Shown: piece after piece, positions 12,674-49,272 of the stretch
Numbering within the stretch: position 1 is the stretch's first letter
Layout: every line of letters starts with the position of its first letter
Origin: Candidatus Moraniibacteriota bacterium
GTDB lineage: Bacteria > Patescibacteriota > Minisyncoccia > Moranbacterales > UBA2206
Assembly (NCBI GenBank): GCA_049304095.1
Contig: JBAQNU010000029.1
Coordinates: forward strand, 34,222 to 98,221
Direction of reading: 5' to 3'
Length of the DNA: 64,000 nt
Made by a program: the position numbers and the translations under genes
Notes under the pieces: model-generated
Told to the model about the DNA's origin: nothing
The model's database searches: none
Seen by the model: the letters and a program-made list of their open reading frames with translations, nothing else

Positions 12674-12779
12674 TTTTGTTTTTTTCTTTATTCAACCTCA
12701 GACGCACCACCTTTACTTGAATTTTTCGCCCCAAGCCACATGCTCTCAAAAATCGCCCGAAAGCCATTGTGGATTTTTT
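12674..12779. repeat. 106-bp direct repeat copy B, forming the 3' end of the TrmB-like gene 12688..13452
   Basis: See copy A. The two copies flank the SDR gene about 1.16 kb apart. Confidence 0.8.
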
Positions 12780-26115: not shown

Positions 26116-26139
26116 TTGTTTTTTAAAAAAACAAACTGG

Positions 26140-26475: not shown

Positions 26476-26495
26476 AAATTATTATTTAAAACAAA

Positions 26496-27269: not shown

Positions 27270-27309
27270 AGCTGAAAAAGATAATTTAATTTTTTTATAA
27301 ATAATTTTT

Positions 27310-33301: not shown

Positions 33302-34462
33302 CTAAAGAGTGATGCGATAGATTTTTCCATCAGTACGATTTTGGAAAAAAAGCAAGCTTTCATCGGAATTGAGAAAAAGATTGGTGGCGTCATATTTTTG
33401 ATCAATTTTAGTAGGTTCGATGAGGCGTGATTTTTCTCCCGTTTGGGTGTTTATGCGCCAAAAAGTATCTGCAGTAAAAAATTTTCCATTATCATAATCA
33501 TTGGGCAAAACGGCATTTACTGGGATTTCTCCAGGGAGGGCGCAAAGAATGGTTTTGTTGTCACCAAGCCAAGTGCATTTAGACGCAAAAGTTGGTGTAT
33601 TGAGGTTTTTCAACTCTCCCCCATTAGAATTGATAGTAGACAGCTGGATTTTTGTTCCACCCTTGGAATCGGAACTGCTAATAAGTGCGTTTGTGCCGGT
33701 TCTGTTCCAGAGATAATCAGCGCCATAAGCTTCTTTGAAGATTTCCTTTTCCGCTCCACCCATAAGGGGAAGAGTTTTGAGACTAGTGGTAAAAAAAGCA
33801 TCAGGCTTATTCCAATAGGAAATTAACCCTCCTGTTCCAGGAATCGTGGCGATTTTGATGTTTCCAGTGGTAAGATCTGTTAGTTTTTTCCAATTAGTTC
33901 CATCAGGAGCGGAAAGATTAAGCGTGCTTTTCTTGCTCTTGGGATCGAAGTATTTGTAGAAAATAAGGTTGTTGCTGTTTTGCCAAGTGATCGAGTCGAT
34001 GTTTTCAGGAAGAGGACTGCTTTTAAGAGTGGCATAATCATAGGAATAGAAGTTAGCATTTCCTCCATTTACTATTTTTGTGATTACCTTGCTTTTGTCT
34101 GGGGACCATAGCACAAAAACTAGGCCAGGTAATGTTTTTGCGGAAAGTGTTCTTTTGCCGTTACCATCAAAATCAACCTGATAAACTTGGCCAGAGAGTT
34201 TGGAATAATATTTGATTGCGCTTTCACCGCTTGCAATGGTTGGAGCGAGCACAGCTTCATCGCTAAGGGCTAGAATTGGCGCAAGGCTCATTTTTGGGGC
34301 CTCATTGGGTGTTTCTGTTTGTGGTTTGGGATTCGTGTTCTCAATTGTAGCTATGGGCGTGGGAGCTGTTTTTTTGAAAGCGAGATTATAGATGCCAAAA
34401 AACAAAAGCGAGAGGCAAAAGAGGGTTAATGAAATATAGAAAATCAATTTACTTTTAGGCAT
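33302..34462 (-). CDS. secreted/anchored hypothetical protein, probable beta-propeller fold
   Basis: N-terminal signal anchor. Repetitive S/T/N/G-rich blades such as LISYWNKPD and IYRITL. This is the last gene of the minus-strand T4SS-like array. Confidence 0.4.
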   Translation of the reverse strand: MPKSKLIFYISLTLFCLSLLFFGIYNLAFKKTAPTPIATIENTNPKPQTETPNEAPKMSLAPILALSDEAVLAPTIASGESAIKYYSKLSGQVYQVDFDGNGKRTLSAKTLPGLVFVLWSPDKSKVITKIVNGGNANFYSYDYATLKSSPLPENIDSITWQNSNNLIFYKYFDPKSKKSTLNLSAPDGTNWKKLTDLTTGNIKIATIPGTGGLISYWNKPDAFFTTSLKTLPLMGGAEKEIFKEAYGADYLWNRTGTNALISSSDSKGGTKIQLSTINSNGGELKNLNTPTFASKCTWLGDNKTILCALPGEIPVNAVLPNDYDNGKFFTADTFWRINTQTGEKSRLIEPTKIDQKYDATNLFLNSDESLLFFQNRTDGKIYRITL

Positions 34463-34485
34463 AACTCTTGTTTTCGTTAAAAAGA

Positions 34486-35394
34486 TTATAAACCGGCATC
34501 ACACCCACAACCACCAGGAACGCTGATGTGTGTGTGCGTCCCTTCGGCTTTATGTTTTGCATTGCATTTGTCGGCAGCAGCGTCAATTGTGCTGTTAACT
34601 TCAGACACATCAATTGCGTATGATTTTCCGGCGCAACTAGCGTTGGTTCCACCATAGTGACAGGAGGTTTTGGCGTGATGGCAGCAGTTTTGTTGTGAAT
34701 CTTCGGTGCATTGAATCCAGGAAGGGTTGTTTCCATAGCAATTAGCTCCACCACCATTATTGTCAGAAATTGAATTTATGGTAAAGTTGCCTGCCCCACC
34801 TAGTTTTTCCGCGAGGCAATTGAGCAGAAGCTGTAGGTCTGATGATGCATCGCCATTGGTATATTGAGCTTTAATATTGTCTGTTTGGAATTTTAATGAG
34901 TTGGCATCGGTAACGGTACTAACAACCGGAATACCTGATCCGCTTGTGGCAGTGACAGTGGCGCTCTCAACCGAACAAGAAAATTTATACCAACCGTCTT
35001 TTTGAATGCCGAGGTCAGTTTTTACAGATAAGAGTGTGAGTGTTGTATTGATAATAAGCCAAGCTCCAAGCATGATAGCAAAACCGATTAAGGAATTAGT
35101 CAATAGTCCTTTTGCTGATGTGATTAGGCCAGGATTGCCGGAAGAAATGATATACATTACACCGGAAATGGTAACGGCAGTGATTGCGGCGACAACGAGA
35201 ATGGTCATACCCCAATCTAGGAGACCTTTGAAGCCGACAATGAGGTGGCAAAGTGTGCAAGGATCAGTCGCGCCAGTGCCACAAGGCACAAGCCCACTGG
35301 CAGCGGAAGCAAAGCGAAAAAAACCAAAGATAACGAGAAAAACTAAGAAAAAAGAAACGCTAAGAGCTGATTTTTTAATAAATATTTTTTGCAT
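34486..35394 (-). CDS. VirB2/TrbC-like pilin-type protein (signal peptide plus two TM helices) with a Cys-rich C-terminal domain
   Basis: Topology: signal peptide, PCGTGATDPCTLC, TM (MTILVVAAITAVTISGVMYIISSGN), TM (LIGFAIMLGAWLIINTTLTLL), then a roughly 170-aa Cys-rich domain. Start taken at the internal MQKIFIKK (35394) to avoid overlapping the upstream gene. Confidence 0.45.
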   Translation of the reverse strand: MQKIFIKKSALSVSFFLVFLVIFGFFRFASAASGLVPCGTGATDPCTLCHLIVGFKGLLDWGMTILVVAAITAVTISGVMYIISSGNPGLITSAKGLLTNSLIGFAIMLGAWLIINTTLTLLSVKTDLGIQKDGWYKFSCSVESATVTATSGSGIPVVSTVTDANSLKFQTDNIKAQYTNGDASSDLQLLLNCLAEKLGGAGNFTINSISDNNGGGANCYGNNPSWIQCTEDSQQNCCHHAKTSCHYGGTNASCAGKSYAIDVSEVNSTIDAAADKCNAKHKAEGTHTHISVPGGCGCDAGL

Positions 35395-35407
35395 AAGACA
35401 TTTTAAA

Positions 35408-35848
35408 TTATTTAGGAAAAGCTTTCCCATTAGGACAAAAGCTGAGGCGATAGTTTTTTCCAGAAGCGTTTTCATTAACATCAAAAGGGACGGACAGGGT
35501 TACTTTTAGTTTGCAAGCAGCTGCTTTGGTGATGTCGAGTGTCTTCAGGAAATCTTTTTCTGCTGCATCTCGAGCGGCTTGAATATTGGGATTAAGAATA
35601 GCGATAATAAATCCTTGATCTTGCGGATAATAATCAATGGAATAGTTGGTGTTTTCCTTAAAGTTGACACCGTCCATGGAAAGAGGCTTTCCGCTGGGAA
35701 GTTTATGTGGATCGTTAATGGAAACTGTTCCGCTGGGCGTTTTTACAATTAATTGATTTTCTTTTTGGGGAAAAACAAAATAAATAATTAGGCCAATGAT
35801 TGTTAGGCCAAGAAAAATAGATAAAAGTATGGTTGCCTTTTTGGACAT
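35408..35848 (-). CDS. small membrane-anchored hypothetical protein
   Basis: N-terminal TM (MSKKATILLSIFLGLTIIGLIIYFVF) followed by a periplasmic domain. Start taken at the internal Met. Confidence 0.4.
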   Translation of the reverse strand: MSKKATILLSIFLGLTIIGLIIYFVFPQKENQLIVKTPSGTVSINDPHKLPSGKPLSMDGVNFKENTNYSIDYYPQDQGFIIAILNPNIQAARDAAEKDFLKTLDITKAAACKLKVTLSVPFDVNENASGKNYRLSFCPNGKAFPK

Positions 35849-35879
35849 AAGATGAATATAAAATGAATTAGTAGAAAAA

Positions 35880-36767
35880 CTAATTAGGAAAACCGCACTC
35901 TGAATTGGCTCCCCACTTACCCCAGTGTGTTCCATTACTAGAAAGGGCGCAAGCGGTTTGAATGTTGCAATCTTTGTTGGTGGCGGAGTCTACACAACTA
36001 GTATAATTTGTCCCTTTAGTGCAATAAACATTCTTCTTTTTCCCAGTGTACATTGGTGCGGCGGCGGAAGTGGCGCAGGTTTGTTGAGAACAAGAACTGC
36101 CCGTGAGATTGTTAGCAGAAAGGTTGATTTGAAATAGTCCCAAGGAAATTGAAAAGTTTTCTGGCTGGCACTTGTCACCACTTTCTTTGTTTTCCTGTCC
36201 ACTGCTTTCTTTCATGCAAATAGCCGAGGCCATTTCAGCATTAGTGCCAAAGCAAGTATTTTTAAGGTTTTCAACTGAGCAGGGACCAGTTGTAATCGGC
36301 TCGCATTTTCCTGTCCCCCCGCTACCACCGCTACCGCCACTACCGCCACTAATACCATTAGTAACTCCGCCACTAATCATATCCGGTAGACTAATTTGTA
36401 AAAGTGCAGGATTGATGGTGTAGAGCAGAACATAGGAAACCATAGCCAGGACTACGCCGGAGATAGCATCAATAATTATTCCTTTGGCTTTATTGGCAGA
36501 ATTGGAATTGCCGGCGCTGGTTATATACATAAACGCACCAATGGAAATCATAACCATCGCCGAGATGCCAATAGTCCAAAGGCCAAATTTATAGATAGCT
36601 GTTAGATATCCGCTATAGCTTGTCGGCCTGTCAAATCCAGGAATTTCTTCCATTGGAGTATAGACTAATTCTTCGGCACTTAGCGTGGCATAGGAAAATG
36701 TCGGCAAAAAAAGCACCAAGAAAAGCAAGGAAAATAGTATTTTTTTGAAATTGATTTTAATATTCAT
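35880..36767 (-). CDS. second VirB2/TrbC-like pilin-type protein with a Gly-Ser linker and a Cys-rich C-terminal domain containing an SLT-like (lytic transglycosylase) motif
   Basis: Signal peptide, then TM (LWTIGISAMVMISIGAFMYITSAGN), TM (IIDAISGVVLAMVSYVLLYTINPALL), a (GGS)n linker, and CMKESSGQENKES...SLGLFQIN, which resembles the SLT family E-S...GLMQ catalytic motif. Start taken at the internal MNIKINF. Confidence 0.45.
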   Translation of the reverse strand: MNIKINFKKILFSLLFLVLFLPTFSYATLSAEELVYTPMEEIPGFDRPTSYSGYLTAIYKFGLWTIGISAMVMISIGAFMYITSAGNSNSANKAKGIIIDAISGVVLAMVSYVLLYTINPALLQISLPDMISGGVTNGISGGSGGSGGSGGTGKCEPITTGPCSVENLKNTCFGTNAEMASAICMKESSGQENKESGDKCQPENFSISLGLFQINLSANNLTGSSCSQQTCATSAAAPMYTGKKKNVYCTKGTNYTSCVDSATNKDCNIQTACALSSNGTHWGKWGANSECGFPN

Positions 36768-39609
36768 TATAATAATTTTTCGCTTTAGGCAGGATAAAAA
36801 AAATAATTTTTGTCGCAAAAATAATCACAAAACCAGCAAGGACTAGGCGGAAAAGAAAAGCGATGTAGGTGGGGATTCCAGCTGAAATGGTGGCGAGAAT
36901 AGCTTTTTTACCCGCTTGGGCTTTCGCCAGCTCCACACTAGCCATTTTGATTTTAATAGAATGACTCAATTTCTTTTCATAGAAGTCATTATAGCCAACA
37001 TTCCAATAGCTGTTAAGTGCTTGTTTTTTATCTGAATCTTGCGTATAAAGAGTCGAAAATTCAATCGAATAGGTTTCGCTGTAGGCTTTGGGTGGCAAAG
37101 TGAGTGTTCCGTCTTTAATGCCGTATCCTCCATATTCTGTGACATTGGTCTCTGAAATAGTATTTCCATCAACAATCCATTGGAATTTTTTACGATCAGT
37201 TTCTTGAGACAGGTTTGCTCCGGTAAAAACTGGGGTTAGTTTAATTTCACTTCCAGTGAGAGCTTGGAATTCTGTCGTGCTTCGATCATCCCATGCACGT
37301 CCATCAAGGTCGATATATTGCCCTAAAAGATTTCCTCGGCAAGTATATTTATTAGCATCAGTTGAGTCAGCGTGTTCGACGGGAGTGATTTTGACAGAAG
37401 GATTAACCACCTTGAAAGCGCGAGATAGGCTGAGTTGCTTTCCGGAGGACTTGTCAACAGCGGACAGATTAATGGTAAATTCCTCGTCAATTTCTTTGAG
37501 AACTGGAAAATAGCTGGTGTTGGTTTGGGTTGGTGCCGCATCAGCTGACAAGCAATTTTGAAAATTACTACTAGGACAAGTGAGTGTTTTTCCGTCAAAC
37601 GTCCAGAGAAAATCATTATAAGCGGTAGTGTCAACTTTCACTGCCAAAATTTCATTTTTGGTCACCTCACAAATAGCGTCCGGGGTGGTGGATGAATCCT
37701 CTGGGGTTAGTTTGAAAAGGCAAAGTTCTTTCGCATCAGCTGAGACGCTAATCAAAGATTCGCCATTTGCGTTAAAACTAGCTATTGTGGGATAGATTTT
37801 AATCCTTTCGGAAGCGGATGAAATTGGAATGACCACATCGGTATGCCCTTCTTTTGTTTCGGTATCAGAAATACTATCTTTAGCAATTAATTTTACCTTG
37901 AGATATTTTGGAACATTTTTGGTAAAATTTAGCTTAAATTTAAAACTATCAATGCCCAAACCAATTGTTTGGGTCGCGTCAGGCAAGTCAGCTTTTGCTA
38001 TTTGGGTCCAATTGTCAGTGTCCGGAGCGTCCCCAGAAAAAACTTGCCATTCATAGTTCAAATAGTCCGGATTTTGCGCGCCAGTAACCGTTCCTTTGAA
38101 AGAGAGTTGATCGCCATTGCCCAAATCACTAGCATCGTTTAGCGGATTTTGTGGTCCATAGGTAATGGCTACATCCATTTTTTGATTAGCTCCACCGCCC
38201 TCTGAGGGTGTGACTAAATTATCATAAAGACATTTGTTAAGACTTTTGACGGTTGGTATTGAATCGCTATCAAGAGCAGATTGATTGTCCTCATCCGCTC
38301 CTGAGCAAGTAATGCCATTATTTGGTCCAGCTTCAGTAGCGCCAAGTGTGCGTGGCTGATCACCTTCGGAATAGCTGGCTGGACAGGTTGTTGTTTGTGT
38401 GATGATGGGTGTCGTGCAGGGAGCAGGAGTGGTTGGTGCTCCCGTGATCTGATCGACGCAGGTAATGTTGGTGGTGGTTGTGGTGAGTGTGCGGATGGTA
38501 ACTAAGTCATTGATTCTTGTTCCATCAACAATTGAAGCCTCGGTCTCAACGGTGTTAGTGGCTGTGCAGGTGTTTCCTGCTGGAACTGTGCAAGAAGATG
38601 GTAGGGTTGTCGAGGTTGGTCCAACAGAAGCGCTCTTTGGATAGTCATCTCCAGTTGGGTCGGCGTTTAATTTGTCGGCGTCACAGGTATTATTGGAAAA
38701 GGCCCACATAGTTTTGTAGCTAGCGTCGGGTTCCGTGGTTGGTTGAGTGGCAATGCCTTCAACTACAACGCCCACCTTATCTCCAGTGCTATAGGTAAAA
38801 GTGAAACTTTGCATTCCCATTCCCGCCACATTAGCTTCATCAACATTGCCAGTTCCCGCTGTGTCGTCAGAATTTGGGTTGGTGTGCCAAAAAGATTCTT
38901 CGCTTGCGCCGAAACTTCCATCCCCGGTTTTTTCTCCATTGGCCTTGGGAAAAAGATGTCTGCTGGAGATGTTATTATCATCACAACCAGAAAGTTCATA
39001 GTCATTGCCGGACGCGACATCATGAAAAAAACAATGCGGTTCTTTGCCTTTTTGATCATCTCCTCCGCTAGACGCTTCATAGCCATCATGATCGGAATCG
39101 GAAGTATAGAGCGTGCTTGGCGTATCCCAAACAAAATCATTACCAGCGATGATGCGTCCCGCTTTGATTTTGTAGTCTTCAATGTCAATAATTTGATTGG
39201 TATCAAGATCGCAGTCGCTAACATAGCTATATTTATCCTTATCAGACTCTTTGTCGGTACATTTTTTGTTTTTGAGGTACCAGGTGAAATATTGACTTTC
39301 GGTTGGATTAAGGAAGTAGGTAGGTGTGGCAGTGACAGTTACTTTTTCTCCTGGGACAGGATTTGCGGGCGAAAAAGAGAGCATTAGTTGCGGTGGGGTA
39401 ACTTTCTGGCGCATCACATTCATCGTGCTTATCGTGTTTTTAAGCTCTGCTTGGTTAACGCCGAGACTATTCATGATTTCATCCTTGATTCCGACGGGAT
39501 TTCCCAAGAGAAAAGATTCTATGCCAGCAGAGGCTGATGGCACGCTGAGTGAAAAAATGTTAATAACAACAAATAAGGTTAGAAAAATTTTTTTGAATAT
39601 TTTTTTCAT
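36757..39609 (-). CDS. large (950 aa) Cys-rich secreted protein with a C-terminal membrane anchor
   Basis: N-terminal signal peptide, dozens of Cys residues and T/S/D-rich segments. C-terminal hydrophobic segment AILATISAGIPTYIAFLFRLVLAGFVIIFATKIIFFILPKA. Confidence 0.5.
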   Translation of the reverse strand: MKKIFKKIFLTLFVVINIFSLSVPSASAGIESFLLGNPVGIKDEIMNSLGVNQAELKNTISTMNVMRQKVTPPQLMLSFSPANPVPGEKVTVTATPTYFLNPTESQYFTWYLKNKKCTDKESDKDKYSYVSDCDLDTNQIIDIEDYKIKAGRIIAGNDFVWDTPSTLYTSDSDHDGYEASSGGDDQKGKEPHCFFHDVASGNDYELSGCDDNNISSRHLFPKANGEKTGDGSFGASEESFWHTNPNSDDTAGTGNVDEANVAGMGMQSFTFTYSTGDKVGVVVEGIATQPTTEPDASYKTMWAFSNNTCDADKLNADPTGDDYPKSASVGPTSTTLPSSCTVPAGNTCTATNTVETEASIVDGTRINDLVTIRTLTTTTTNITCVDQITGAPTTPAPCTTPIITQTTTCPASYSEGDQPRTLGATEAGPNNGITCSGADEDNQSALDSDSIPTVKSLNKCLYDNLVTPSEGGGANQKMDVAITYGPQNPLNDASDLGNGDQLSFKGTVTGAQNPDYLNYEWQVFSGDAPDTDNWTQIAKADLPDATQTIGLGIDSFKFKLNFTKNVPKYLKVKLIAKDSISDTETKEGHTDVVIPISSASERIKIYPTIASFNANGESLISVSADAKELCLFKLTPEDSSTTPDAICEVTKNEILAVKVDTTAYNDFLWTFDGKTLTCPSSNFQNCLSADAAPTQTNTSYFPVLKEIDEEFTINLSAVDKSSGKQLSLSRAFKVVNPSVKITPVEHADSTDANKYTCRGNLLGQYIDLDGRAWDDRSTTEFQALTGSEIKLTPVFTGANLSQETDRKKFQWIVDGNTISETNVTEYGGYGIKDGTLTLPPKAYSETYSIEFSTLYTQDSDKKQALNSYWNVGYNDFYEKKLSHSIKIKMASVELAKAQAGKKAILATISAGIPTYIAFLFRLVLAGFVIIFATKIIFFILPKAKNYYNEY

Positions 39610-40286
39610 CTGGCTAAATAAATTAGAACACTATCTAGAATTATTATAACAAAAAAATGCATAAAATACGAATAAAGAAAAGATTTAGTTTTGTAGGCCA
39701 AAATCCCCCCACTCACGGAAAATAAAATGAAAGGCAATATTTGCCAAGAAAAAGAATTAGTGAGCCATAGGGCTAAAAAATAAATCAGTGCTTGGAGCGC
39801 AATTGCCCAATAAGTTAATTTTTCACGGAAAAGAGAAAGGATGAATCCGCGAAAGAAAAATTCATTAATAAAAACGATAAAATTAACTAAGAGCAGTTCA
39901 TAGCCAAGAAAAAACCAAAAATTAGACATGATTTCCGGAGAAAGTTTGTAGTTTGTGCGAAAAGAGGTGTAATTGAGCAAAAGATAAAAAGTTAAAAGGA
40001 GAAAAAGGGCTAAAACAGAGCTCCAAACTAATCCCGCGTGCCTATTTTTCAAATTAAGGCCTAGCTCTGGTAATTTCATCTTGAGGATTATTCTAGCGTA
40101 GATTGTTGGCAAGAGAATAAGAAAAAAAATATTTTTAGTAATCAATTGAGCGGAATTTTGCGAGGGAAAGAAAAGACCCAAAAATAGGCAAAGCAAGGCT
40201 ACGCCAAAGCTAATTAGCAATTCTTGATTAAGAGAGAGTGAATTCAGATTAATTTTAAGTTTTTTTGGCTGGTACATTTTAATCAA
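39606..40286 (-). CDS. CPBP family (CAAX/Abi-like) intramembrane metalloprotease
   Basis: Polytopic protein. NEFFFRGF is an EExxxR-like motif 1, and FMHFFVII is His-containing motif 2/3. Confidence 0.55.
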   Translation of the reverse strand: MIKMYQPKKLKINLNSLSLNQELLISFGVALLCLFLGLFFPSQNSAQLITKNIFFLILLPTIYARIILKMKLPELGLNLKNRHAGLVWSSVLALFLLLTFYLLLNYTSFRTNYKLSPEIMSNFWFFLGYELLLVNFIVFINEFFFRGFILSLFREKLTYWAIALQALIYFLALWLTNSFSWQILPFILFSVSGGILAYKTKSFLYSYFMHFFVIIILDSVLIYLAR

Positions 40287-40320
40287 ATTTTTTAGGTCAC
40301 TACATTAAGAATCAAAAAAA

Positions 40321-40866: not shown

Positions 40867-40883
40867 ATTTTTTATCGCTTAAT

Positions 40884-42722
40884 CTAGGCATTTTCTTCAT
40901 CAAAATCTTTTTTGGCTTGCTCGATTTCCAAAAGTTGCGATGGATCAGTAGTGATGATTTGATCTTCAGAATAGGACGCAACCACTTTAATGGCAACATG
41001 TTTGGTGCCGGCGAAAAAGATTCCTTCTCCCACATTACTTTCAAGAAGTAGAAACTTCTCTTGATCAGTGAGATAGAAAGTATCGCAAATCACGTCAATA
41101 CCAGCTGGCGATTGCTTGAGTAGGAGTTGAAGTGAAGAGTTAGTCACGATTGCTTTGCCATAGCGTGAAGACAAAAAGTCATTAACATCTTGCGTGATTG
41201 TGGTGAGGCCAGTGAAATATTTGCGACAACGCTTGGCAATGCCAAAAAGAAAAGAAGCGGCGTCTTCTGATTTCATCATCACCCAGGCTTCATCGACTAG
41301 AACGACCCGTTTTTTGACATTAGTCCGCATTTCATTCCAGATAAATTGCAAAATGGTATACATTGCTACGGGACGAAGTTCTTCTTCCATATCGCGAATA
41401 TTGAAAACGACTAATTGGTTGTCTACTTTAATGTTGGTGGTGTGATTGAGAAAGCCAGCAAAAATTCCTTCCGTATATTTTTCCAGGCGAATAGCAATCA
41501 TCTCTCCACCTTCCATGCTGCGAAGAACTTGATGCAAATCAGACATAGTAGGAAAGGCATCTCGAGAAAGCTTATTGAAATCGGTTTCCACTGTGATGTC
41601 TCTGATAGAATATGTTTCATGAATAGCGCGATCGAGAATGGAATCTTCCTCTGGAGTGATGGAGCCGAGCATAATGTGAAGTAGTCCCAGAAGATTAGCA
41701 ATATTTCCGCGCAAAACATCCTCTGGATCATCATCTTCGGTGATACGTGGCAAATCAAAAGGATTGAGATGGTTGTCTGAGTTGAGTGAGATTTTGATAA
41801 AAGAGCCTTCTACTGTGTCACAAAGGTGGCGGTATTCATTTTCCGGGTCAATGATAATCACGTCAGTCCCCACCATCATTGAGCGCAGAACTTCCAATTT
41901 CACGGTATAGCTTTTTCCAGCGCCAGACTTGGCAAAAACGACCATATTGGCATTTTCCATTTGAAAGCGATCAAAGATGATAAGACTATTATTGTGTCTG
42001 TTAATTCCATAGAGAATGCCAGTGTTGGTGGAAAGGGTGGAAGAAACAAAGGGAAATGTTGTAGAAAGTGGAGAGCTATTCATGTTAGTGCCAATATTGA
42101 GCTCATCATTGGCGAGTGGTAGCGAAGAATTGAAGCCTTGTTCCGACTTGAAAATAGCCGGTTTGACATAGACTAGTTGTGCTTCCAGAACCGCTTCAAT
42201 GCTTTTTATAATTTCCGTAACTGATTTTTCGCTGTCGCCATAGGCTGTGATATAGAGCGAGAAACGGAAAAACTTTTCCGTTCCTTGTTGCAACTTATCG
42301 CGCAAATCATCAATGTCTTCCTTGGCAGTTTCTAGCGCTGGATCACGAATGAGACCCTTCTCTCCTTCAATTTGAATTTGGGATTCAACCTGAGTAGCGC
42401 TTTTACGTAAAGTTTTCAAGATATCGCTCGTGTCAATGGGGTGGACAAACATAGAAATATCAATCGGCATATTGATATTTATAATAGGAGAAAACCAGTT
42501 GCTGTGAAGAAATCTTGGATAAGCAATGACAAAAATTGTCTGAGCGATGGTTTCTCCCACGCGAATAGATTTGGGCATAATTTGGATGGCTGCTGGTGCA
42601 ATCAAATCATTCAGGCGCGCTAAGCCTTCTTGGTAATATTTTTCCGATTCCAAAACAGCATCCGTTGGTGGGGCGGGTTTTTTGCTATTCTCTGGGTTTT
42701 TGTTGGCAAAAGGGTTTAGCAT
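40884..42722 (-). CDS. VirB4/TrbE/CagE-family type IV secretion ATPase
   Basis: Walker A VVFAKSGAGKSYT, Walker B VVLVDEAW and a TrbE-like RxF/HxxNP region. 612 aa. Confidence 0.8.
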   Translation of the reverse strand: MLNPFANKNPENSKKPAPPTDAVLESEKYYQEGLARLNDLIAPAAIQIMPKSIRVGETIAQTIFVIAYPRFLHSNWFSPIININMPIDISMFVHPIDTSDILKTLRKSATQVESQIQIEGEKGLIRDPALETAKEDIDDLRDKLQQGTEKFFRFSLYITAYGDSEKSVTEIIKSIEAVLEAQLVYVKPAIFKSEQGFNSSLPLANDELNIGTNMNSSPLSTTFPFVSSTLSTNTGILYGINRHNNSLIIFDRFQMENANMVVFAKSGAGKSYTVKLEVLRSMMVGTDVIIIDPENEYRHLCDTVEGSFIKISLNSDNHLNPFDLPRITEDDDPEDVLRGNIANLLGLLHIMLGSITPEEDSILDRAIHETYSIRDITVETDFNKLSRDAFPTMSDLHQVLRSMEGGEMIAIRLEKYTEGIFAGFLNHTTNIKVDNQLVVFNIRDMEEELRPVAMYTILQFIWNEMRTNVKKRVVLVDEAWVMMKSEDAASFLFGIAKRCRKYFTGLTTITQDVNDFLSSRYGKAIVTNSSLQLLLKQSPAGIDVICDTFYLTDQEKFLLLESNVGEGIFFAGTKHVAIKVVASYSEDQIITTDPSQLLEIEQAKKDFDEENA

Positions 42723-43408
42723 TATTTTAATTCCATTTTAGTTGTATCAACATAACCCATTGTATCAAAAATTGTCGGGTTATACGAATTAAACAGCAGT
42801 TCAATTAGTTCCGCGGTTTTGAGCGGGGCAATTTTGAGTCCAATACCAGAAAGTCCAGCGGTGATGTGGTCAACGCGTTGATAGAGTTGGCTCTTGTAAG
42901 TTTCAAAATTCTCTCTTTTTTCCAAAATATTTTTCTGGGGATTGAGCAATCCGGTTATATTGCTAAAGAAGCCTTTCTCGGTATTTTCCATCGGAGAAAA
43001 GGGAACGACAATATAGAAGCTTTTGTCCATAATATCAGACAGGGAAACAAGTTGTTTAATGAAGTTTTTATATTCCGAAATCTGCAAGCGCATCAGTTCC
43101 GTTTTTTGTAATTTTTCTTTTCCCGTGAGAAACTCAATATAAGTGTCGATGTTTAATTTTCGTGAACTGATGAGGATTTGCAAAGGAAAATCAACTGAAT
43201 TGAGGAAATTTTGATATTGACTAATAATTGCTTCTTGCTCATCAGAGGCTTTGAGGTCAAAATTGATGGCAGAAATATCCAAAACTGCTCGAAGTGAGCC
43301 ACTTTTGAGCACAATTACATCTTCTTTGACTTCCGCCACGTCCAAATATCTTTGTGTTGGCGAGGCGGCCGCCTCTTTGGCTAGTTTTTTTGAATAGAGA
43401 TCTTCCAT
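42722..43408 (-). CDS. hypothetical protein translationally coupled to the VirB4-like gene (possibly a separate VirB4 N-terminal-like component)
   Basis: 228 aa. Its stop overlaps the VirB4-like start (ATGA). No diagnostic motif. Confidence 0.35.
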   Translation of the reverse strand: MEDLYSKKLAKEAAASPTQRYLDVAEVKEDVIVLKSGSLRAVLDISAINFDLKASDEQEAIISQYQNFLNSVDFPLQILISSRKLNIDTYIEFLTGKEKLQKTELMRLQISEYKNFIKQLVSLSDIMDKSFYIVVPFSPMENTEKGFFSNITGLLNPQKNILEKRENFETYKSQLYQRVDHITAGLSGIGLKIAPLKTAELIELLFNSYNPTIFDTMGYVDTTKMELK

Positions 43409-43412
43409 GGAG

Positions 43413-43805
43413 TTATTTTTTATCTAATATTTGTGAAATACTTTCAGCTTTTTTGCTATCAAAGCTTTTTTTAGTAATGGTTGTTGCTAAGCCCTGGGAA
43501 GAGCTTTCTCTTTTGGTCTCTTTTATCACTTCTCTTTTCCAGACATACATTTTGGGTCTGGTGGCAAACATAATAGAGGAGGTGATGAATTTAATGAGTG
43601 GTTGGTTATATGGCCTGTAGAAGGCTAGTCCGCCAAAAATAATGGCGACGATAATTACTGAAAAGACAAAAGATGATTTGTCCAAGAGGCCATAGAGGAT
43701 GAGTGTAATGATGCTGCCCAAGGCCAACCAGCCAAGTTGTCTGGCTGTCAGTGGCCCAACGATCTTGTCTTCAATATCAATAAATTGTGGAACATTAAAT
43801 AGCAT
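43413..43805 (-). CDS. small two-TM protein, VirB3/PrgI-like by size, topology and position
   Basis: LTARQLGWLALGSIITLILYGLL followed by a second TM (FVFSVIIVAIIFGGLAFY). Start taken at the internal Met (43805). The 5' end lies inside a tandem 14-nt repeat. Confidence 0.35.
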   Translation of the reverse strand: MLFNVPQFIDIEDKIVGPLTARQLGWLALGSIITLILYGLLDKSSFVFSVIIVAIIFGGLAFYRPYNQPLIKFITSSIMFATRPKMYVWKREVIKETKRESSSQGLATTITKKSFDSKKAESISQILDKK

Positions 43806-43894
43806 ATAGCATGTAGCATATAGCATGTAGCAGGAAACATATAGCAGCGTTTAAATGCTTTTTTGTTATATGTTGCATGTTACATGTTGCATGG
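43801..43894. repeat. two pairs of 14-nt-period tandem repeats (agcatatagcatgt x2; atgttgcatg(t/g)(t/g)ac x2) spanning the start of the VirB3-like gene and its upstream region
   Basis: Read directly from the sequence: 43801-43828 and 43869-43894. Confidence 0.6.
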
Positions 43895-43896
43895 AA

Positions 43897-44958
43897 TTAT
43901 TCCTCTCTCAAGTTTACCACATTTTTTGGCATCGGTCTTCCTTGCGGTGAGTTGATTTGCTTCTGTGGTGGAAATGGCGAATATTTTCTGGTCAAAGTTG
44001 GCGTAGTGCGGTCGATTTTTTCGGTGGAAAAGGTCTGGGGAGAGGAAAAACTGATTTTTTCTGGCAGGATAACTTCTGGTTCTTTTTCTAGCGTTTCTTT
44101 TTGGGGTAGGTTTTTGCGCCAAGCGCTGAGGCGATCGGTGTCAGTTGCAAAAACAGGCGAAACGGAATTTGTGGCAGAAGTTTGTTGAGTTGGTAGTGGT
44201 TTTTCACTTCTTTTCTCTGTTGGCGGGAGAAAAATAATTTGCTTGGTTTTGGTGTTCACAATGAGTAGTGTTTTTTCTTCAAAGGATTTCAAGATTTCTG
44301 CCAGTTTTTCACGGTCAGATGAGTTGAGGTTTCGTCCGTTTTCACTTTTGAAAAGATAGTTTCCGCGCACAATCGGATCGTGGTTGCTGATGCCGACGAC
44401 ATAGGAATAGTCCGCCAACCAGTTTTTGATTGAAGGTCGCACTGGATCAGGAAAAACAGCCAATTTGATGCGGTTTTGGGTGATTAATTGTTCGCCGAGT
44501 TCGGGATATTTTTGGATGGCAATTGTGATAGGGAGTTTTTCTAGCTGAGCGACGTAGGCTTTTTCTTGTGAGTCGTCATTTATAATTCTTTGAATCACCA
44601 ACTCAGAAATTTTTTGCGCGGTAATCTGGTCAACACCCATTTCTTTTGATAGGATTGCCGGAAAATTTTCCAGTTGAATCTCACCAAAATAATAACCACG
44701 AACAGCGCGAGCGATGTCAGTCAATTGCAGAAGTTCCAAATTGAAATTTTTACCGATAGTTTGGATTTTTTGAGCAGTTTCTTCGGAGACAAGTTTATCT
44801 TTTACTGATTCTGACAATGTTAGAAATTTTTCTTGTCTTTTGAAAACATGTTCTGAAGTTTCATCGTCAGGATTTTTGGTTACAAAAACAGCATAGGGAG
44901 ATGCGCATCTCATTTCTGACAAGTTCTCATTTATTTCCAATGATGACATATTGGGCAT
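43897..44958 (-). CDS. hypothetical protein (T4SS-cluster member)
   Basis: 353 aa with no motif recognised. P/T/S-rich C-terminal third. Confidence 0.4.
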   Translation of the reverse strand: MPNMSSLEINENLSEMRCASPYAVFVTKNPDDETSEHVFKRQEKFLTLSESVKDKLVSEETAQKIQTIGKNFNLELLQLTDIARAVRGYYFGEIQLENFPAILSKEMGVDQITAQKISELVIQRIINDDSQEKAYVAQLEKLPITIAIQKYPELGEQLITQNRIKLAVFPDPVRPSIKNWLADYSYVVGISNHDPIVRGNYLFKSENGRNLNSSDREKLAEILKSFEEKTLLIVNTKTKQIIFLPPTEKRSEKPLPTQQTSATNSVSPVFATDTDRLSAWRKNLPQKETLEKEPEVILPEKISFSSPQTFSTEKIDRTTPTLTRKYSPFPPQKQINSPQGRPMPKNVVNLREE

Positions 44959-44975
44959 GTAATGTTTAATATTTT

Positions 44976-46979
44976 TTAAACTATTCCAGTATTGACCTCA
45001 AGCGCGGATGCGTTATTAGCAGAAAGCCTTTTATGAATTTCTGCTCTTGCTTCAGCTTTCATAGAGGCCCATGCTGTTCGCGTGGCTCGTATGACACTAT
45101 CTCTTTCTGCATTTCTATTGTTTGCCCGTATTGTGTAGGCCGCTAAGGATTCTCCTGGTCTTTGCGGACCTACTGGTTGGAGTATATCTGTCCAATTTTG
45201 ATCATTCCATTGTTCAGCCGTGAGACTGCCCATTTGTTGATTTGCAATATATTGTTCAGTGGTTACTCGAGTGCTTGAAATAGCAGTGGCTATCGCTGGT
45301 GTTAGGCCTGCCCTTGTTGCGTTATCGTACAACGCTAATTGTGCAGCAGGCGTGCTTGCAGCTGTACCACCGTCTATATTTGATTGCTTTGCCTGCTCCC
45401 CTGCATCATTCGATTTGTTAATAGCAACCAAATCATTTCTGTTTTGTTTAACCTTAGCATTTATAGCGCCTCTGAGTGATGCGTTAGTGTTTGTTCTCGT
45501 AAAGCCATCATAAGTGGCCTGGTCCATTTTTTTATCTTCCGCCAATCTAAATGCAGCTCCAGCATCGCCTGCAGCAGCCAAAGATTTAAGTTCGTTATCA
45601 GTCGTGTCATTTTTCTTGTGCTCTGCAGCTCTTCTGCGCATATCTTTTTCTTCCGCTCCTTTTACATTAAAGCGAGCTGCCATCTTAGCTTCTCTTTGCG
45701 CAGTTTTTTCAGATCCCAACCAGCTGTTTTTCTTGGTTTGTTCCCATTTTTGTTTGGCGGCGCCAGAAAGTCCAGATTTTTTGGATATGAAGCCCACTGA
45801 TCCAAGTGCGGGATTTTTGGCGAGCCATTTTCCGGCTTTTTTCCCTGTCTTTACCACCGCTTCTGCGCCTTTGATACCAGAGCTTTGAGCCAGGATAATG
45901 CCATACCAAAGCACGATAATCGGGAGGACAAAAATAGAAACCCCAGTGATTAGTTGGCTGATGTTGCCCGGGTCTTCAAGTCCGTTGACTTGCATGTTGG
46001 CAATAGTTTTAATTTTTCCTCCCGAACTGGCCATGGCACTCATTAGCACATTAGCGACATAGAGCATAAAAACAATAATTGGTCCGGCAAAACAGTTTTT
46101 CATGAAATCCGTCCACCATTCGTTGCCGGCGCTATCTAGTTTGGTGCCAGGAAGGACCGATCCAACAAAGGCTAGTGGAGAAAAGATAATGTAGAGCGTG
46201 AGAGAAACAGTTCTAATTATGAGCAAAACAGCAATTACTAAAAGTGTAATAGCAAGAATAAAAGTAAAAACAATAGCAGAGAGAAGAAACAAAGCATTGG
46301 GGCTTGTTCCACCGACAATCCAATCCAGTCCAGAACCCTTAATAATAGACATAAATGAGTTGTCTCCGCCCATACTTTGCAAAAATCCAAACATAATAAT
46401 GTTAGAAAGATCGATAATGAATCGCGCGATTGGATAACTGAAATTGACCAAAAGGGCCATAAGCACAAGATTTCGCAGAACACTTTTATAATTATATTTG
46501 CTATATTGAAAAACAGTGGCAAAAGCGGAGAATAGAAGCACCATAATGAAAACCACATTGAGCACATCGCGCACGGCGCGCCATGTTGTATAAACGGCGC
46601 TATTGGTCATGATAGCTTTCATTGTATTTGGATTGACAATCCATTGGAATAATGTTTCTGCAATATTGAGCAGTATGGTAACAAATTTTAGAACAATTTT
46701 GAGTAAAAATATAATAGCTTGTTCGATTAGTCCAGGAGTGCCCGCAGGATCATTTTCTGATTTGGTGTCGACTAGGCCTGTTTCGCCTTGGGATACTGAT
46801 TTGCTCTGATTGCATGTGCTAACGCAAACATCTTTATCGCTTTGATCTTGAAATCTATCACAATCACTTACGCAATCGGCTAAAACTGTTTTTGTCAAAC
46901 TAACCAACGGCAAAACAACCGCAAGGCAAAAAACTGCGAGTAAAATTTTTAACTTGTGTTTTTGGAGGTAGGCGTTCAC
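44976..46979 (-). CDS. polytopic membrane protein, VirB6/TrbL-like by architecture, with a long hydrophilic Ala/Lys/Asn-rich C-terminal tail
   Basis: Signal peptide plus a Cys-rich N-terminal region, then at least 6 TM helices and a roughly 280-aa tail. Adjacent to VirB3/VirB4-like genes. Confidence 0.45.
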   Translation of the reverse strand: MNAYLQKHKLKILLAVFCLAVVLPLVSLTKTVLADCVSDCDRFQDQSDKDVCVSTCNQSKSVSQGETGLVDTKSENDPAGTPGLIEQAIIFLLKIVLKFVTILLNIAETLFQWIVNPNTMKAIMTNSAVYTTWRAVRDVLNVVFIMVLLFSAFATVFQYSKYNYKSVLRNLVLMALLVNFSYPIARFIIDLSNIIMFGFLQSMGGDNSFMSIIKGSGLDWIVGGTSPNALFLLSAIVFTFILAITLLVIAVLLIIRTVSLTLYIIFSPLAFVGSVLPGTKLDSAGNEWWTDFMKNCFAGPIIVFMLYVANVLMSAMASSGGKIKTIANMQVNGLEDPGNISQLITGVSIFVLPIIVLWYGIILAQSSGIKGAEAVVKTGKKAGKWLAKNPALGSVGFISKKSGLSGAAKQKWEQTKKNSWLGSEKTAQREAKMAARFNVKGAEEKDMRRRAAEHKKNDTTDNELKSLAAAGDAGAAFRLAEDKKMDQATYDGFTRTNTNASLRGAINAKVKQNRNDLVAINKSNDAGEQAKQSNIDGGTAASTPAAQLALYDNATRAGLTPAIATAISSTRVTTEQYIANQQMGSLTAEQWNDQNWTDILQPVGPQRPGESLAAYTIRANNRNAERDSVIRATRTAWASMKAEARAEIHKRLSANNASALEVNTGIV

Positions 46980-47001
46980 TGGTTTTTTTCTGGATTAACT
47001 T

Positions 47002-48120
47002 TTATTTTTTATATAACGCTCCCGGACCATAGGCGTTGACTTTTTGGTTGACTTGATTGACGGCTTTATCTGTCACGCTATTGAGTTTTTGATCAACTGC
47101 TCTTTGTGCTCCGGAGATGGCACTTTCGGTGAGACTGGAAATGGCTTTAGAAACCGTGGCGGCAATAATTTCCGGCAGACTCTTAGCATAGGCCATGGCC
47201 ATGTTGGGGAGATTTTCCACATTGGCTTTCATGTCAGCAATAAGGGAACCTGGTTTGGTGACTGAGCCATCATCCGCCACGTTGCCAAGAAAACCTTTGT
47301 AGGCGATACTTTGGGCTGTGGCAGTTGCGGTCTCGTCTTTTTCCACTTTGTCCATGTAGGCTTGGGTGTACATAGCAATATCTGAGGGCATATTATTTTC
47401 CAAAACATAGAGATTGAGATTGGATAGATCCTTCCCCGCTAGCAGATTCTCAGTATCAATATTGGGGAATGTTTTTGGTTCTGGATTAATTACTTCCTTG
47501 TCAACCATTGTTATCATTTTCTCGGCATAACTCTCCGTTGGAGCAGGAGATCCATTGACAGAAGAACATTCCATTACGTTTCCACCCATTGGTTGGCAAG
47601 TTCCGATGGTGCCGTCTGCCATTTGGCATTCAGTGCCAGTGTTAGCCACGCTGCAATCTGTGACGGCTGCCAAAACTCGGGCGCCAAAACCTTCCGACTC
47701 CGTGCTGGCTCCCAAGACAAGGCCACTAGTACTGCGATAATTGGACATTCCGCGACCGGCAAAAGCTTGACTGATATAATCATTGGCATAGGCACGGGCG
47801 GTGCGCTTGGGAGAGTCGACAAGGTAGTCTTTCCAGTTGGTGATGAAGCGCGCCCCGTTGCCTGAGACACCGGAGATGAAACGATCAACTTGATTGGAAA
47901 CCATTTGAATCGCGCTTTGTTTGAGAGAGGCGAGCATCGTTTCTTGAATAAAATCCCAAATTTTGGTTTGAGCAAAAATTGCTTCTCCAGCTGGCAGGGC
48001 GTCCCACGCCAGGGCTTTTGAGGTGCCTAGGGGAGAAAAAGTGAGCAAAAAAGCAACCAAAGACAACAAAAATGTTTTCTTGATGGGCTGAAAAAAAGAA
48101 TTTGTTTTCGGCTGATTCAT
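47002..48120 (-). CDS. secreted hypothetical protein
   Basis: Signal peptide (LLSLVAFLLTFSPLGTSKALA). Cys cluster CSVANTGTECQMADGTIGTCQPMGGNVMECS. Confidence 0.4.
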   Translation of the reverse strand: MNQPKTNSFFQPIKKTFLLSLVAFLLTFSPLGTSKALAWDALPAGEAIFAQTKIWDFIQETMLASLKQSAIQMVSNQVDRFISGVSGNGARFITNWKDYLVDSPKRTARAYANDYISQAFAGRGMSNYRSTSGLVLGASTESEGFGARVLAAVTDCSVANTGTECQMADGTIGTCQPMGGNVMECSSVNGSPAPTESYAEKMITMVDKEVINPEPKTFPNIDTENLLAGKDLSNLNLYVLENNMPSDIAMYTQAYMDKVEKDETATATAQSIAYKGFLGNVADDGSVTKPGSLIADMKANVENLPNMAMAYAKSLPEIIAATVSKAISSLTESAISGAQRAVDQKLNSVTDKAVNQVNQKVNAYGPGALYKK

Positions 48121-48132
48121 TTTGATGAGTGT

Positions 48133-49188
48133 TTAATTTTGTTCAAGTAGTTTGCCAATTTCCTCGAGACTTTCTGGCGCTGAAATGCCATAGCTTTCTA
48201 ATTTTTTTTGAATGGTTTCATTGTAGTCCAGTCCATATTCCGAGAATTTGGCTTGTGCTTCCATGGTAAAGTCGGAAAAGGCAGAAAGTAGGCCAGAAAT
48301 TTTTGCAAGACTGGCAATGTCTCCCAGAGGGTCCTCATCTTTGGGTCTTAGTGTTTGAGCGAGCTCATTAGAATAGAGCGCGAGATTTAGGGCTTTTATG
48401 TGCAGATCAACCAGATTTTCCGGCACTTCCAGGGCTTTTAGCTGTTCAATGATTTTGGTTTGACTTTCAGCGAGTTTTTCGATTCCGGCGGTGTTTCGAC
48501 TGGAAATGGCCGAAATGATGATGTTTTGGATGTTTTGAATAACTTTTGGGGCGTCACTGAGCGAGGTGATTGGTTCAGGCGAATTGCTGGAAAGAATATA
48601 GATGAGCGCGGTGAGATAGTTGGTGGCGTCCTCTTTGATTTTCTCAAGTGCTCTTTTTTCGCTTAAATTAGCATAACTAGCTTGACTTTTGATGTTTAAA
48701 TCCTCTCTTTTTATTTCTGGTAGATTCGTTTCTCCGAGATTGTTATCGCCTGCGATTGTTTGATCAATGAGCGACTGAACATCTTCCAAGGAAGGGGGGC
48801 TGTCGGATGATGCGGTGAGCTTGGAAAGTCTTTCTGAGAGATCAGTGGTGAGATTTTTTTGAGTGGAGTCGCCAAGTACACTATCGGCAGAAGCGATTTT
48901 TGAAGCGGTAGTGTCTGCGATTATTTTGTCTCCAGGAGCGGGCTTTAGCGGGTTGTATCCAGCGCGCACTTCCGCTCCGTCGGAATAGCCATCACCATCC
49001 GTGTCACTTTTTTGCGGATCGGTTCCATACATCTTTTCTTCTTCGTTAGTTAGTCCATCTTGGTCACTATCAAGAAAGACACTACTGGTAGTGTTAGCCT
49101 TGTCTTCAGCGCCTACATAGAAGGCAAAACTCAAAACGAGCAAACATCCCAAAACCAAAAAAGTCGAGTTGATATTTTTTATTTTCAT
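48133..49188 (-). CDS. secreted protein with thrombospondin-type-3-like calcium-binding repeats
   Basis: Signal peptide. DSDQDGLTNEEE...DTDGDGYSDGAEV (DxDxDG repeats). Confidence 0.45.
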   Translation of the reverse strand: MKIKNINSTFLVLGCLLVLSFAFYVGAEDKANTTSSVFLDSDQDGLTNEEEKMYGTDPQKSDTDGDGYSDGAEVRAGYNPLKPAPGDKIIADTTASKIASADSVLGDSTQKNLTTDLSERLSKLTASSDSPPSLEDVQSLIDQTIAGDNNLGETNLPEIKREDLNIKSQASYANLSEKRALEKIKEDATNYLTALIYILSSNSPEPITSLSDAPKVIQNIQNIIISAISSRNTAGIEKLAESQTKIIEQLKALEVPENLVDLHIKALNLALYSNELAQTLRPKDEDPLGDIASLAKISGLLSAFSDFTMEAQAKFSEYGLDYNETIQKKLESYGISAPESLEEIGKLLEQN

Positions 49189-49272
49189 ATGTCTGGATTA
49201 TACCACAACCACTGTCAAGTTGTGAAGGGGAAAAGATTTGCTTTGAATTTTTTTGAGTGCTAAATTAGAGTT

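Follow-up and report, generated by a model that had tools for sequence, protein, structure and literature searches.

What machine does a VirB4 ATPase drive when the coupling protein VirD4 and the VirB11 ATPase are missing from its gene cluster, and when the pilin-like proteins encoded beside it carry large Cys-rich extensions? This question is raised by positions 33302-49188 of the 64-kb stretch of Candidatus Moraniibacteriota DNA analysed here, the whole of which is referred to as the window. An earlier note, made from the letters of the DNA, had described the region as a cluster resembling a type IV secretion system (T4SS) of the Candidate Phyla Radiation type, with DNA uptake and host attachment as candidate functions. 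The region very probably encodes a chromosomal, vertically inherited Patescibacteria T4SS that descends from MPF_FATA conjugation machinery and is no longer conjugative. The cluster is a member of this recently described family and no new class of machine, and the Cys-rich extensions of its pilins appear, from profile and motif matches, to be peptidoglycan hydrolase domains.

A VirB4-centred operon kept in many genomes

The region is a single compact operon of 14 co-directional minus-strand open reading frames (ORFs), packed with gaps of at most 70 nt and with overlaps of 1 nt (42722), 4 nt (39606-39609) and 11 nt (36757-36767); the same 14 genes are called in an independent Logan assembly (SRR28062512). 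The ORFs that had been named earlier are all present, at the same coordinates or within a few codons. To follow their conservation, the 14 proteins were compared with 80 species-representative loci fetched via VirB4; the counts of conservation below are over 81 loci unless stated otherwise. The genes at the centre of the operon are the following.

44976..46979, minus strand: g03, VirB6/TrbL-like polytopic protein, 667 aa (topology; precomputed TrbL_3 match)
43897..44958, minus strand: g04, cytoplasmic protein, 353 aa (no transmembrane segment)
43413..43826, minus strand: g05, PrgI/VirB3-like protein with two transmembrane (TM) segments, likely start 43805 (Pfam PrgI)
42722..43408, minus strand: g06, TrsD-like protein, 228 aa, the VirB4 N-terminal domain as a gene of its own (NCBIfam TrsD)
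40884..42722, minus strand: g07, VirB4 ATPase of the CD1110/MPF_FATA type, 612 aa (NCBIfam NF045971; Pfam P-loop_TraG)
40321..40866, minus strand: g08, three-TM protein with a charged N-terminus, 181 aa (synteny after virB4)

The VirB4 ATPase recognised in the earlier note is borne out by matches of g07 to NF045971 conju_CD1110 (E 8e-112) and P-loop_TraG (2.5e-29), and its Walker A (KSGAGKS) and Walker B (VVLVDEAW) motifs can be read from the sequence. The protein is 70-89% identical across the 80 Moranbacteria-type genomes, and its sequence assigns it to the MPF_FATA/CD1110 lineage, closest to patescibacterial VirB4s; the nearest plasmid VirB4s, all of the CD1110 family of Firmicutes/Actinobacteria, are 28-36% identical. 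Since its relatives at 80-89% identity are proteins named Candidatus Moranbacteria/Moraniibacteriota, from metagenome-assembled genomes, the organism is, on this evidence, Candidatus Moranbacteria (Parcubacteria; Paceibacteria in GTDB terms). The pilin and the 950-aa protein of the operon are also present, in identical form, in an NCBI Moraniibacteriota metagenome-assembled genome. The placement agrees with the Candidate Phyla Radiation attribution made before, and the gene pattern matches that of published Patescibacteria T4SSs (PMC12102498, PMC10633639, PMC12857230, PMC11665869).

The gene that precedes virB4, whose TrsD-like identity was absent from the earlier note, matches NCBIfam TrsD NF041427 (1.7e-7) and the N-terminal region of VirB4_plasma NF045975 (6e-11), and a precomputed match to PF26593 (TraC-like) exists as well. 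It is translationally coupled to virB4 through a TAATG junction with a one-base overlap and occurs in 78 of the 81 loci at 53-85% identity. The possibility that a sequencing error has cut a single VirB4 into g06 and g07 was rejected, because the same TAATG split is found in the independent assembly and recurs in those 78 loci, and because TrsD-like genes are the rule in the phylum (PMC12102498). For g05, the predicted two-TM VirB3/PrgI-like nature is supported by Pfam PrgI (5e-11; 43.4 bits, cutoff 27), by its two TM segments and by its presence in 76 of the 81 loci; ortholog conservation begins at Met8, that is at 43805, the start proposed before.

The polytopic VirB6-like protein with a long tail was likewise well described by its topology, with seven hydrophobic segments followed by a hydrophilic C-terminal tail of ~300 aa. 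A precomputed match links g03 to PF19590 TrbL_3, and TrbL PF04610 is matched in 4 of 43 orthologs (best 4e-4), while the Pfam hmmscan and NCBIfam scans of the window protein are negative and its profile finds no VirB6 among PDB sequences, only coiled-coil noise in the tail. The precomputed TrbL_3 match is thus at odds with the empty hmmscan against the Pfam-A copy. Directly after virB4, g08 is found in 73 of the 81 loci, in both clades including the divergent one described below, with K76, D77, D80 and P148 invariant; it has no homolog in PDB sequences, Pfam or NCBIfam and is likely an unrecognised core T4SS component. The cytoplasmic g04, also without a PDB, Pfam or NCBIfam match, has a conserved central domain in which Q157, R174, N179, W180, D183 and Y184 are among the invariant residues. 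No cluster protein matches a VirB8-like protein (PrgL/TcpC, NTF2-fold), and the profiles of g02 and g12, two further operon proteins, are negative against PDB sequences in this respect.

The complete order (thrombospondin-type-3 (TSP3) protein, g02, VirB6-like protein, g04, PrgI, TrsD-like protein, VirB4, g08, CPBP-like protein, 950-aa protein, pilin gene(s), g14) is kept in ~50 species genomes, with intact ORFs and 40-89% protein identity, and the housekeeping flanks, with UbiA, KsgA and a G5-DPBB protein at one end and Wzy and GT2 at the opposite end, are kept in ~40-50 genomes. Because order and flanks are common to ~50 genomes, the locus is considered vertically inherited and not an integrated conjugative element. 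In a second, divergent clade (VirB4 ~71% identical) only PrgI, the TrsD-like protein, VirB4, g08 and pilins stay together, and the CPBP-like, immunoglobulin (Ig)-repeat, TSP3 and propeller genes were not detected within 10 kb.

Conjugation genes were sought with Pfam in the ORFs of at least 120 aa across the window, save for those downstream of 21.5 kb and those in the final 2 kb. Among the scanned ORFs there is no relaxase, coupling protein (VirD4, or type IV coupling protein, T4CP), VirB11 or integrase, and the 64 kb contain no tRNA or Rfam RNA. The lack of VirD4 and VirB11 in the array, as first reported, holds for the scanned ORFs of the whole window; for VirB11, such an absence is normal in an ancestry of the Gram-positive MPF_FATA type and nothing unusual. 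VirB4 is not the only T4SS homolog, given that PrgI, TrsD-like, VirB6-like and VirB2-like modules and an SLT-type hydrolase are nearby, and no complete conjugative T4SS with a relaxase is found in the window.

Hydrolase-like domains on the pilin modules

Two genes in the second half of the operon encode the pilin-like proteins.

35880..36767, minus strand: g11, VirB2-like pilin module, Gly/Ser linker and predicted SLT_3 lytic transglycosylase domain (SLT_3 PF18896)
34486..35394, minus strand: g13, VirB2-like pilin module, flexible linker and Cys-rich domain with LAS/M15/Hedgehog-N zinc-hydrolase motifs (profile; AlphaFold2 model)
34489-34947, minus strand: C-terminal domain of g13

The VirB2/TrbC-like pilin topology previously proposed for both is supported, as each begins with a signal peptide followed by two TM helices. 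The T4SS_pilin model PF18895 falls below threshold in the window copies (8e-4, and 4e-3 for g11) and above it in orthologs, and the NCBI name of the protein at 34486-35394 is 'pilin'. The mature proteins have ~270 aa, with a folded domain of ~160 aa after helix 2. Cys counts on the longest ORFs, 15 for 34486-35394 and 13 for 35880-36767, agree with the Cys-rich C-terminal domains noticed at the outset, which can now be refined to peptidoglycan hydrolase-like domains. The fusions are non-standard, as was said of them, but the activity is not, wall hydrolysis being a standard T4SS function (VirB1/PrgK); through these fusions, g11 and g13 would stand in for VirB1.

For g11, the match to SLT_3 reaches 30.7 bits against a 27-bit cutoff, and the motifs C..ES (with the catalytic E-S) and S.GLFQ.N are invariant in nine orthologs; by this profile and these motifs the extension is an SLT_3 lytic transglycosylase domain. 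The same slot in sister loci holds a pilin module with a canonical SLT domain (PF01464, E 1e-11 to 1e-14).

The extension of g13 is probably a zinc peptidase of the M15/LAS/Hedgehog type. The family (VanX, VanY, DD-peptidase, Hedgehog-N) is recognised by the zinc motifs SxHxxGxAxD plus ExxH/HxH. The g13 domain shows the pattern S-x-H ... A-x-D ... H-x-H, interrupted by 7-9 inserted residues between its His (G) and Asp (AxD) motifs. Among 50 full-length homologs, S244, H246 and D262 are invariant and H240 is nearly so, H287 and H289 are kept in 48-49, and E284 is kept in 30. The domain profile matches 23 Hedgehog N-domain sequences in the PDB (E 1.3e-4 to 7e-3), the alignment covering SxHYxG and NHvHvSv, and one family member touches Pfam HH_signal at 1e-3. 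In the AlphaFold2 model (mean pLDDT (predicted local distance difference test) 84.7), a signal helix and two long helices precede a compact C-terminal domain with pLDDT >90, and the elements around the motifs follow the order beta-loop-beta-alpha-beta-beta, in agreement with the LAS/M15 fold. The likeness to LAS/MEROPS M15 enzymes (VanX, VanY, phage L-Ala-D-Glu peptidases) and to Hedgehog-N thus comprises S-x-H-x-x-G ... A-x-D ... (E-x-x-)H-x-H and the element order; the differences are the insertion, the many disulfide-type Cys, the lack of a significant Pfam M15 match and the lack of a Foldseek neighbour. A search of 1.84 billion representative proteins returned the g13-type domain in 195 clusters, nearly always C-terminal in proteins of ~300 aa. 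Since the pilin module is also present in 117 of 127 full-length representatives, the domain is, judged by these sequences, a small dedicated pilin-attached family without a Pfam model.

Among the C-terminal extensions that pilin modules carry in the 80 loci, 17 are LAS-like and 10 SLT_3-like; the others are mostly canonical SLT, and one is a weak NlpC/P60 match. No other pilin module occurs in any window ORF of at least 50 aa and the cluster has no bare pilin, whereas many sister loci have one bare pilin beside a fused one. In the divergent clade, one ORF carries two tandem pilin modules (positions 7718-8530 of locus L058; also loci L056, L057, L059, L060 and L062-L079) and both adjoins a bare pilin and lies upstream of PrgI, unlike the arrangement in the window.

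The extracellular set and the rest of the window

The remaining genes of the operon encode predicted membrane, secreted and anchored proteins.

48133..49188, minus strand: g01, secreted protein with bacterial thrombospondin-type-3 (Ca-binding) repeats, 351 aa (Pfam TSP3_bac 4e-16)
47002..48120, minus strand: g02, secreted or anchored protein, 372 aa (N-terminal hydrophobic segment)
39606..40286, minus strand: g09, membrane protein with a CPBP/Rce1-like fold, gene callers' start 40277 (Pfam Rce1-like 5e-8)
36757..39609, minus strand: g10, surface protein, 950 aa (signal peptide; AlphaFold2; Foldseek)
35408..35935, minus strand: g12, small single-TM protein with an exported domain of ~120 aa, likely start 35845 (topology)
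33302..34462, minus strand: g14, N-terminally anchored exported protein, 386 aa, last gene of the operon (topology, synteny)

The long surface protein g10 had been described as Cys-rich and anchored, which its signal peptide, 17 Cys and C-terminal TM helix support. Its AlphaFold2 model (pLDDT 81.5) places a mixed alpha/beta head and ~8 Ig-like beta-sandwich domains between signal peptide and TM helix, and all 113 PDB matches found by Foldseek at E<1e-3 are tandem Ig-like-type proteins, among them cadherins, complement MG domains, phage Hoc, the GhpA grappling hook and an archaeal S-layer protein. As modelled, g10 consists of Ig-like domains strung in a row and held at the membrane, a generic architecture of adhesins or stalks; its homologs, confined to Moranbacteria/Parcubacteria, are unannotated.

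The gene that overlaps g10 by 4 nt, g09, co-occurs with it in the loci that extend far enough. The protein had been called a CPBP intramembrane protease, and of this label the family stands: it is polytopic, matches Pfam Rce1-like above threshold and has a motif-1-like (Q/N)EFFF(R/K)GF. The CPBP catalytic motifs EExxxR, FxxxH and HxxxN/D are nevertheless not intact. The protein has two His in all (H83 and H210), the motif-2 His is replaced (position L173), and H210 persists in 3 of 53 orthologs, E142 in 36 and R146 in 23. Compared with CPBP/Rce1 (Abi) intramembrane glutamic proteases, the fold match and a motif-1-like sequence are shared, and the motif-2 and motif-3 His are absent from the window protein or from the majority of orthologs. 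Because both catalytic His are lacking, the protease label is doubtful, and g09 is probably not an active protease but a protein with a degenerate active site. Maturation of the C-terminal anchor of the 950-aa protein in the manner of MrtS/Synerg-CTERM was rejected on the same ground, the MrtS match being noise (E 0.072), and cleavage of the pilin fusions by g09 was also set aside for want of the catalytic His.

The signal-like N-terminal segment of g01 precedes its repeats, and the gene is kept at the same position in 45 loci. Synteny extends to g02 in 46 loci and to g14 in 39 (40-66% identity), and g12 is poorly conserved and found in 9. Weak TolB-like similarity (E 0.026 and 0.055) makes g14 possibly a beta-propeller. 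Against PDB sequences, the profiles of g02 and g12 found no match and those of g03, g04, g08 and g14 brought nothing useful, and NCBIfam returned nothing beyond TSP3-repeat relatives for g01, g02, g03 and g10.

The operon lies ~8 kb from dnaA/oriC, with dnaA, dnaN, rpmH, rnpA and yidC 8-10 kb off, and the window is core chromosome. The G+C content of the operon is close to that of its flanks. Polysaccharide genes (Wzy, GT2) border one end, and UbiA, ksgA and the G5-DPBB protein the other. In the 84-bp divergent intergenic region, directly 5' of g01, lies a promoter-like site. The origin region spans 22924-27783, the GC-skew sign changes near 24 kb, and yidC and jag follow rnpA on the plus strand.

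49197..49226, minus strand: best sigma-70-like promoter match, TTCACA-18-TATAAT with extended TG (consensus match only)
22924-24087, minus strand: dnaN (replication origin region)
24150-24348: cluster of DnaA-box-like sites
24354-25742, minus strand: dnaA (replication origin region)
25978-26115, plus strand: rpmH
26116-26475, plus strand: rnpA

Farther from the operon, three paralogous TrmB-family helix-turn-helix regulators of ~250 aa stand within 11 kb among unannotated ORFs (10321-11073, minus; 12688-13452, minus; 20778-21515, plus), and a 443-aa Fic-domain protein (6641-7972, minus) and a protein with a Bro-N domain, which is common in phages (15250-16098, minus), occur amid housekeeping genes. 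Upstream of a class A penicillin-binding protein (3989-6571), a run at 50-3923 on the plus strand contains three ATP-grasp (RimK-like) ORFs and a Mur-ligase-like ORF and may be a peptide-ligase or cell-wall modification cluster.

Kinship, mechanism and rival readings

A survey by Quinonero-Coronel et al. 2025 (PMC12102498) defined a Patescibacteria-specific VirB4 clade derived from MPF_FATA, for which TrsD is the commonest partner, accompanied by PrgI, VirB6 and arrays of VirB2-like PF18895 pilins. Relaxases are almost absent there, T4CPs are rarely near virB4, Paceibacteria loci lie close to dnaA, dnaN, rnpA, rpmH and ksgA, and most genomes with VirB2 have no detectable VirB1; pilin-hydrolase fusions, CPBP and SLT_3 are not mentioned. 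In Southlakia epibionticum, the homologous locus was found by transposon sequencing to be essential for epibiotic growth (Wang et al. 2023, PMC10633639), and Table S2 of that work lists a 612-aa VirB4, a TrsD-like gene, PrgI, two VirB6-like proteins, an NTF2-like protein and six bare pilins, with a lysozyme-like protein and a Peptidase-M15B structural homolog beside virB4, the last two being separate essential genes (PMC12102498). With this prototype (SEML1_0006-0019) and its clade, the window cluster shares a chromosomal location, a 612-aa MPF_FATA VirB4 preceded by a TrsD-like gene, PrgI, a gene cluster that includes a VirB6-like protein and PF18895 pilins and has neither relaxase nor T4CP close by, the site near dnaA, dnaN, rnpA, rpmH and ksgA seen in Paceibacteria, and wall hydrolases of the lysozyme and M15 types in the locus. 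The differences are that S. epibionticum has separate hydrolase genes and six bare pilins (104-185 aa), whereas in the window both pilins are hydrolase-fused and no bare one accompanies them; that the NTF2/VirB8-like protein of S. epibionticum was not detected in the window cluster; and that the latter adds the pair formed by the degenerate CPBP-fold protein and the 950-aa Ig-repeat protein, the TSP3 protein, the possible propeller, g02 and g04.

Compared with the Gram-positive MPF_FATA T4SSs (pCF10 prgH-prgL/pcfC, the CTn2 CD1110 family, pGO1 trs), VirB4 (PrgJ/CD1110), PrgI and a VirB6-like protein are common to all, the TrsD-like protein is common to the window and the pGO1 subclass, and the pairing of a glycosidase with a peptidase recalls PrgK/TraG/CD419. 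No T4CP (PcfC), relaxase, oriT, PrgL/VirB8-like protein or PrgB-type adhesin was detected in the window, and the locus, at a fixed chromosomal site and vertically inherited, is unlike the conjugative systems in this respect. The window also has VirB2-like pilin modules, which the Gram-positive systems lack, and carries its SLT_3 and LAS-type hydrolases on them, whereas MPF_FATA systems carry SLT and CHAP on a single-TM anchor. With the VirB2/TrbC/TraA pilins of diderm T4SSs, g11 and g13 share the signal peptide, the two-helix hydrophobic hairpin and, in family members, PF18895/PF04956 similarity; diderm pilins have ~70-100 aa when mature (~70-120 aa taken as the defining range), against ~270 aa here with a folded domain after helix 2.

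From these relationships, a mechanism can be proposed in which g03, g05, g06, g07 and g08 would make up a translocon in the cytoplasmic membrane, powered by the VirB4 ATPase. Tethered to the pilin modules, the SLT_3 and LAS-type enzymes would do the job of VirB1/PrgK, cutting glycan strands and peptide stems beside the machine, and the opening so made would let it span the cell's own wall and possibly breach that of the host. The Ig-repeat, TSP3 and possible propeller proteins may hold the host surface. By analogy with the essential S. epibionticum T4SS, the cargo moved, either effector proteins outward or host-derived molecules inward, would support an epibiotic lifestyle; effector delivery and host-molecule uptake are also what reviews have speculated for Patescibacteria T4SSs.

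Several points weigh against this interpretation. The VirB6 homology of the window protein itself is weak, and no VirB8-like protein was found. The M15/LAS assignment of g13 depends on one sequence profile (E ~1e-4); no Pfam M15 model is significant for the domain, and the fold search (Foldseek against the PDB and BFVD) gave no supporting match. Both pilin modules carry domains of ~160 aa, so that assembly of a pilus is uncertain, and nothing in the sequence points to a cargo or a direction of transport. The genome may also encode a T4CP or further pilins at other sites: T4CP homologs lie far from virB4 in many Patescibacteria (PMC12102498), and the scan made here covers a 64-kb window. Finally, essentiality and the epibiotic role are extrapolated from another class, Saccharimonadia.

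Among the alternatives, a sub-variant of the proposed mechanism has the most to recommend it: the pilin modules may be membrane anchors and nothing more, g11 and g13 being tethered hydrolases that make room in the peptidoglycan of the cell itself for a short, Gram-positive-type channel without a pilus. This is a tentative possibility of some substance, in keeping with the lack of a bare pilin in the cluster (ORFs of at least 50 aa checked), the extensions of at least 160 aa on both modules, the flexible linkers suited to a tethered enzyme (a GGSGGSGGSGG run; pLDDT <50 at residues 144-147) and the literature on Gram-positive T4SSs, which normally have no pili. Many sister loci nonetheless keep a bare pilin, and the divergent clade has a bare and a tandem-module pilin, which suggests that the module has kept its part as a pilin; the genome may also hold bare pilin genes at other sites, and assembled pili can display segments added to the C-terminus of F-pilin. 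At the opposite extreme, the hydrolase-bearing modules would be true minor pilins, extracted from the membrane by VirB4 into a 'drilling' pilus that would display a lytic transglycosylase and a zinc peptidase on its sides or at its tip and cut the host wall to establish a conduit between epibiont and host. The conserved and dedicated fusion (117/127), the exported domains, the flexible linkers and the absence of another pilin in the cluster fit such a pilus, which is nevertheless rated as unlikely. It also seems rather improbable that g09-g14 are a separate envelope/S-layer and wall-remodelling module, merely co-transcribed with a minimal T4SS core. The divergent clade, with PrgI, the TrsD-like protein, VirB4 and g08 kept and the CPBP-like, Ig-repeat, TSP3 and propeller genes not detected, would accord with such a division, as would the S-layer proteins among the Foldseek matches of g10, although sequence divergence may hide orthologs in that clade. 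The 4-nt g09/g10 and 11-nt g10/g11 overlaps and the strictly kept order across ~50 genomes argue for one functional unit, and the pilin modules and wall hydrolases, bona fide T4SS functions, sit in the g09-g14 half.

Two other readings concern the nature of the machine. A DNA-uptake system, ComB-like or Ced-like, that imports host DNA as a nucleotide source is given a low probability. It would explain a cluster without relaxase or T4CP, nucleotide acquisition via T4SS has been raised in the literature, and VirB4 has weak, sub-threshold similarity to archaeal CedB (1.8e-16, 59.9 bits against a cutoff of 700); this similarity is, however, generic to the VirB4/HerA family, and the operon has no recognisable DNA-binding or DNA-processing protein. 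In S. epibionticum, competence depends on type IV pili and ComEC, and deletion of comEC abolishes competence and not viability; therefore the essentiality of the T4SS does not run through ComEC, which weakens the ComEC-linked form of the competence-like option raised in the earlier note and excludes that route but leaves a separate one through the T4SS. An ordinary integrated conjugative element, or its decayed remnant, is highly improbable. VirB4, PrgI, TrsD and VirB6 are homologous to Gram-positive conjugation genes, and the nearest plasmid relatives of VirB4 are mostly on plasmids predicted conjugative, but this reading is largely refuted by gene content (no integrase, relaxase or T4CP in the scanned ORFs, no tRNA; no search aimed at flanking repeats was made) and by the conserved flanks, the intact ORFs standing next to oriC, between the same housekeeping genes in ~50 species, with G+C near that of their surroundings.

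The preferred interpretation, a vertically inherited Patescibacteria T4SS, gives the locus its interest, as this system is essential in the only genetically tractable representative and is spread across a huge uncultured radiation. The window is a clean and complete Moranbacteria example of it. Its new detail is that a seemingly missing VirB1 can hide in proteins scored as VirB2 pilins (pilin-SLT and pilin-LAS fusions); because hydrolases are fused to pilin modules, the VirB1 gap in the 2025 survey may be partly explained. As a point of annotation, the embedded CPBP-like gene probably does not encode a protease. A lineage-specific extracellular set, composed of the Ig-repeat anchor protein, the TSP3 protein and a possible propeller, travels with the T4SS core, and two small exported predicted enzyme domains offer cheap biochemical targets in organisms that are not yet culturable.

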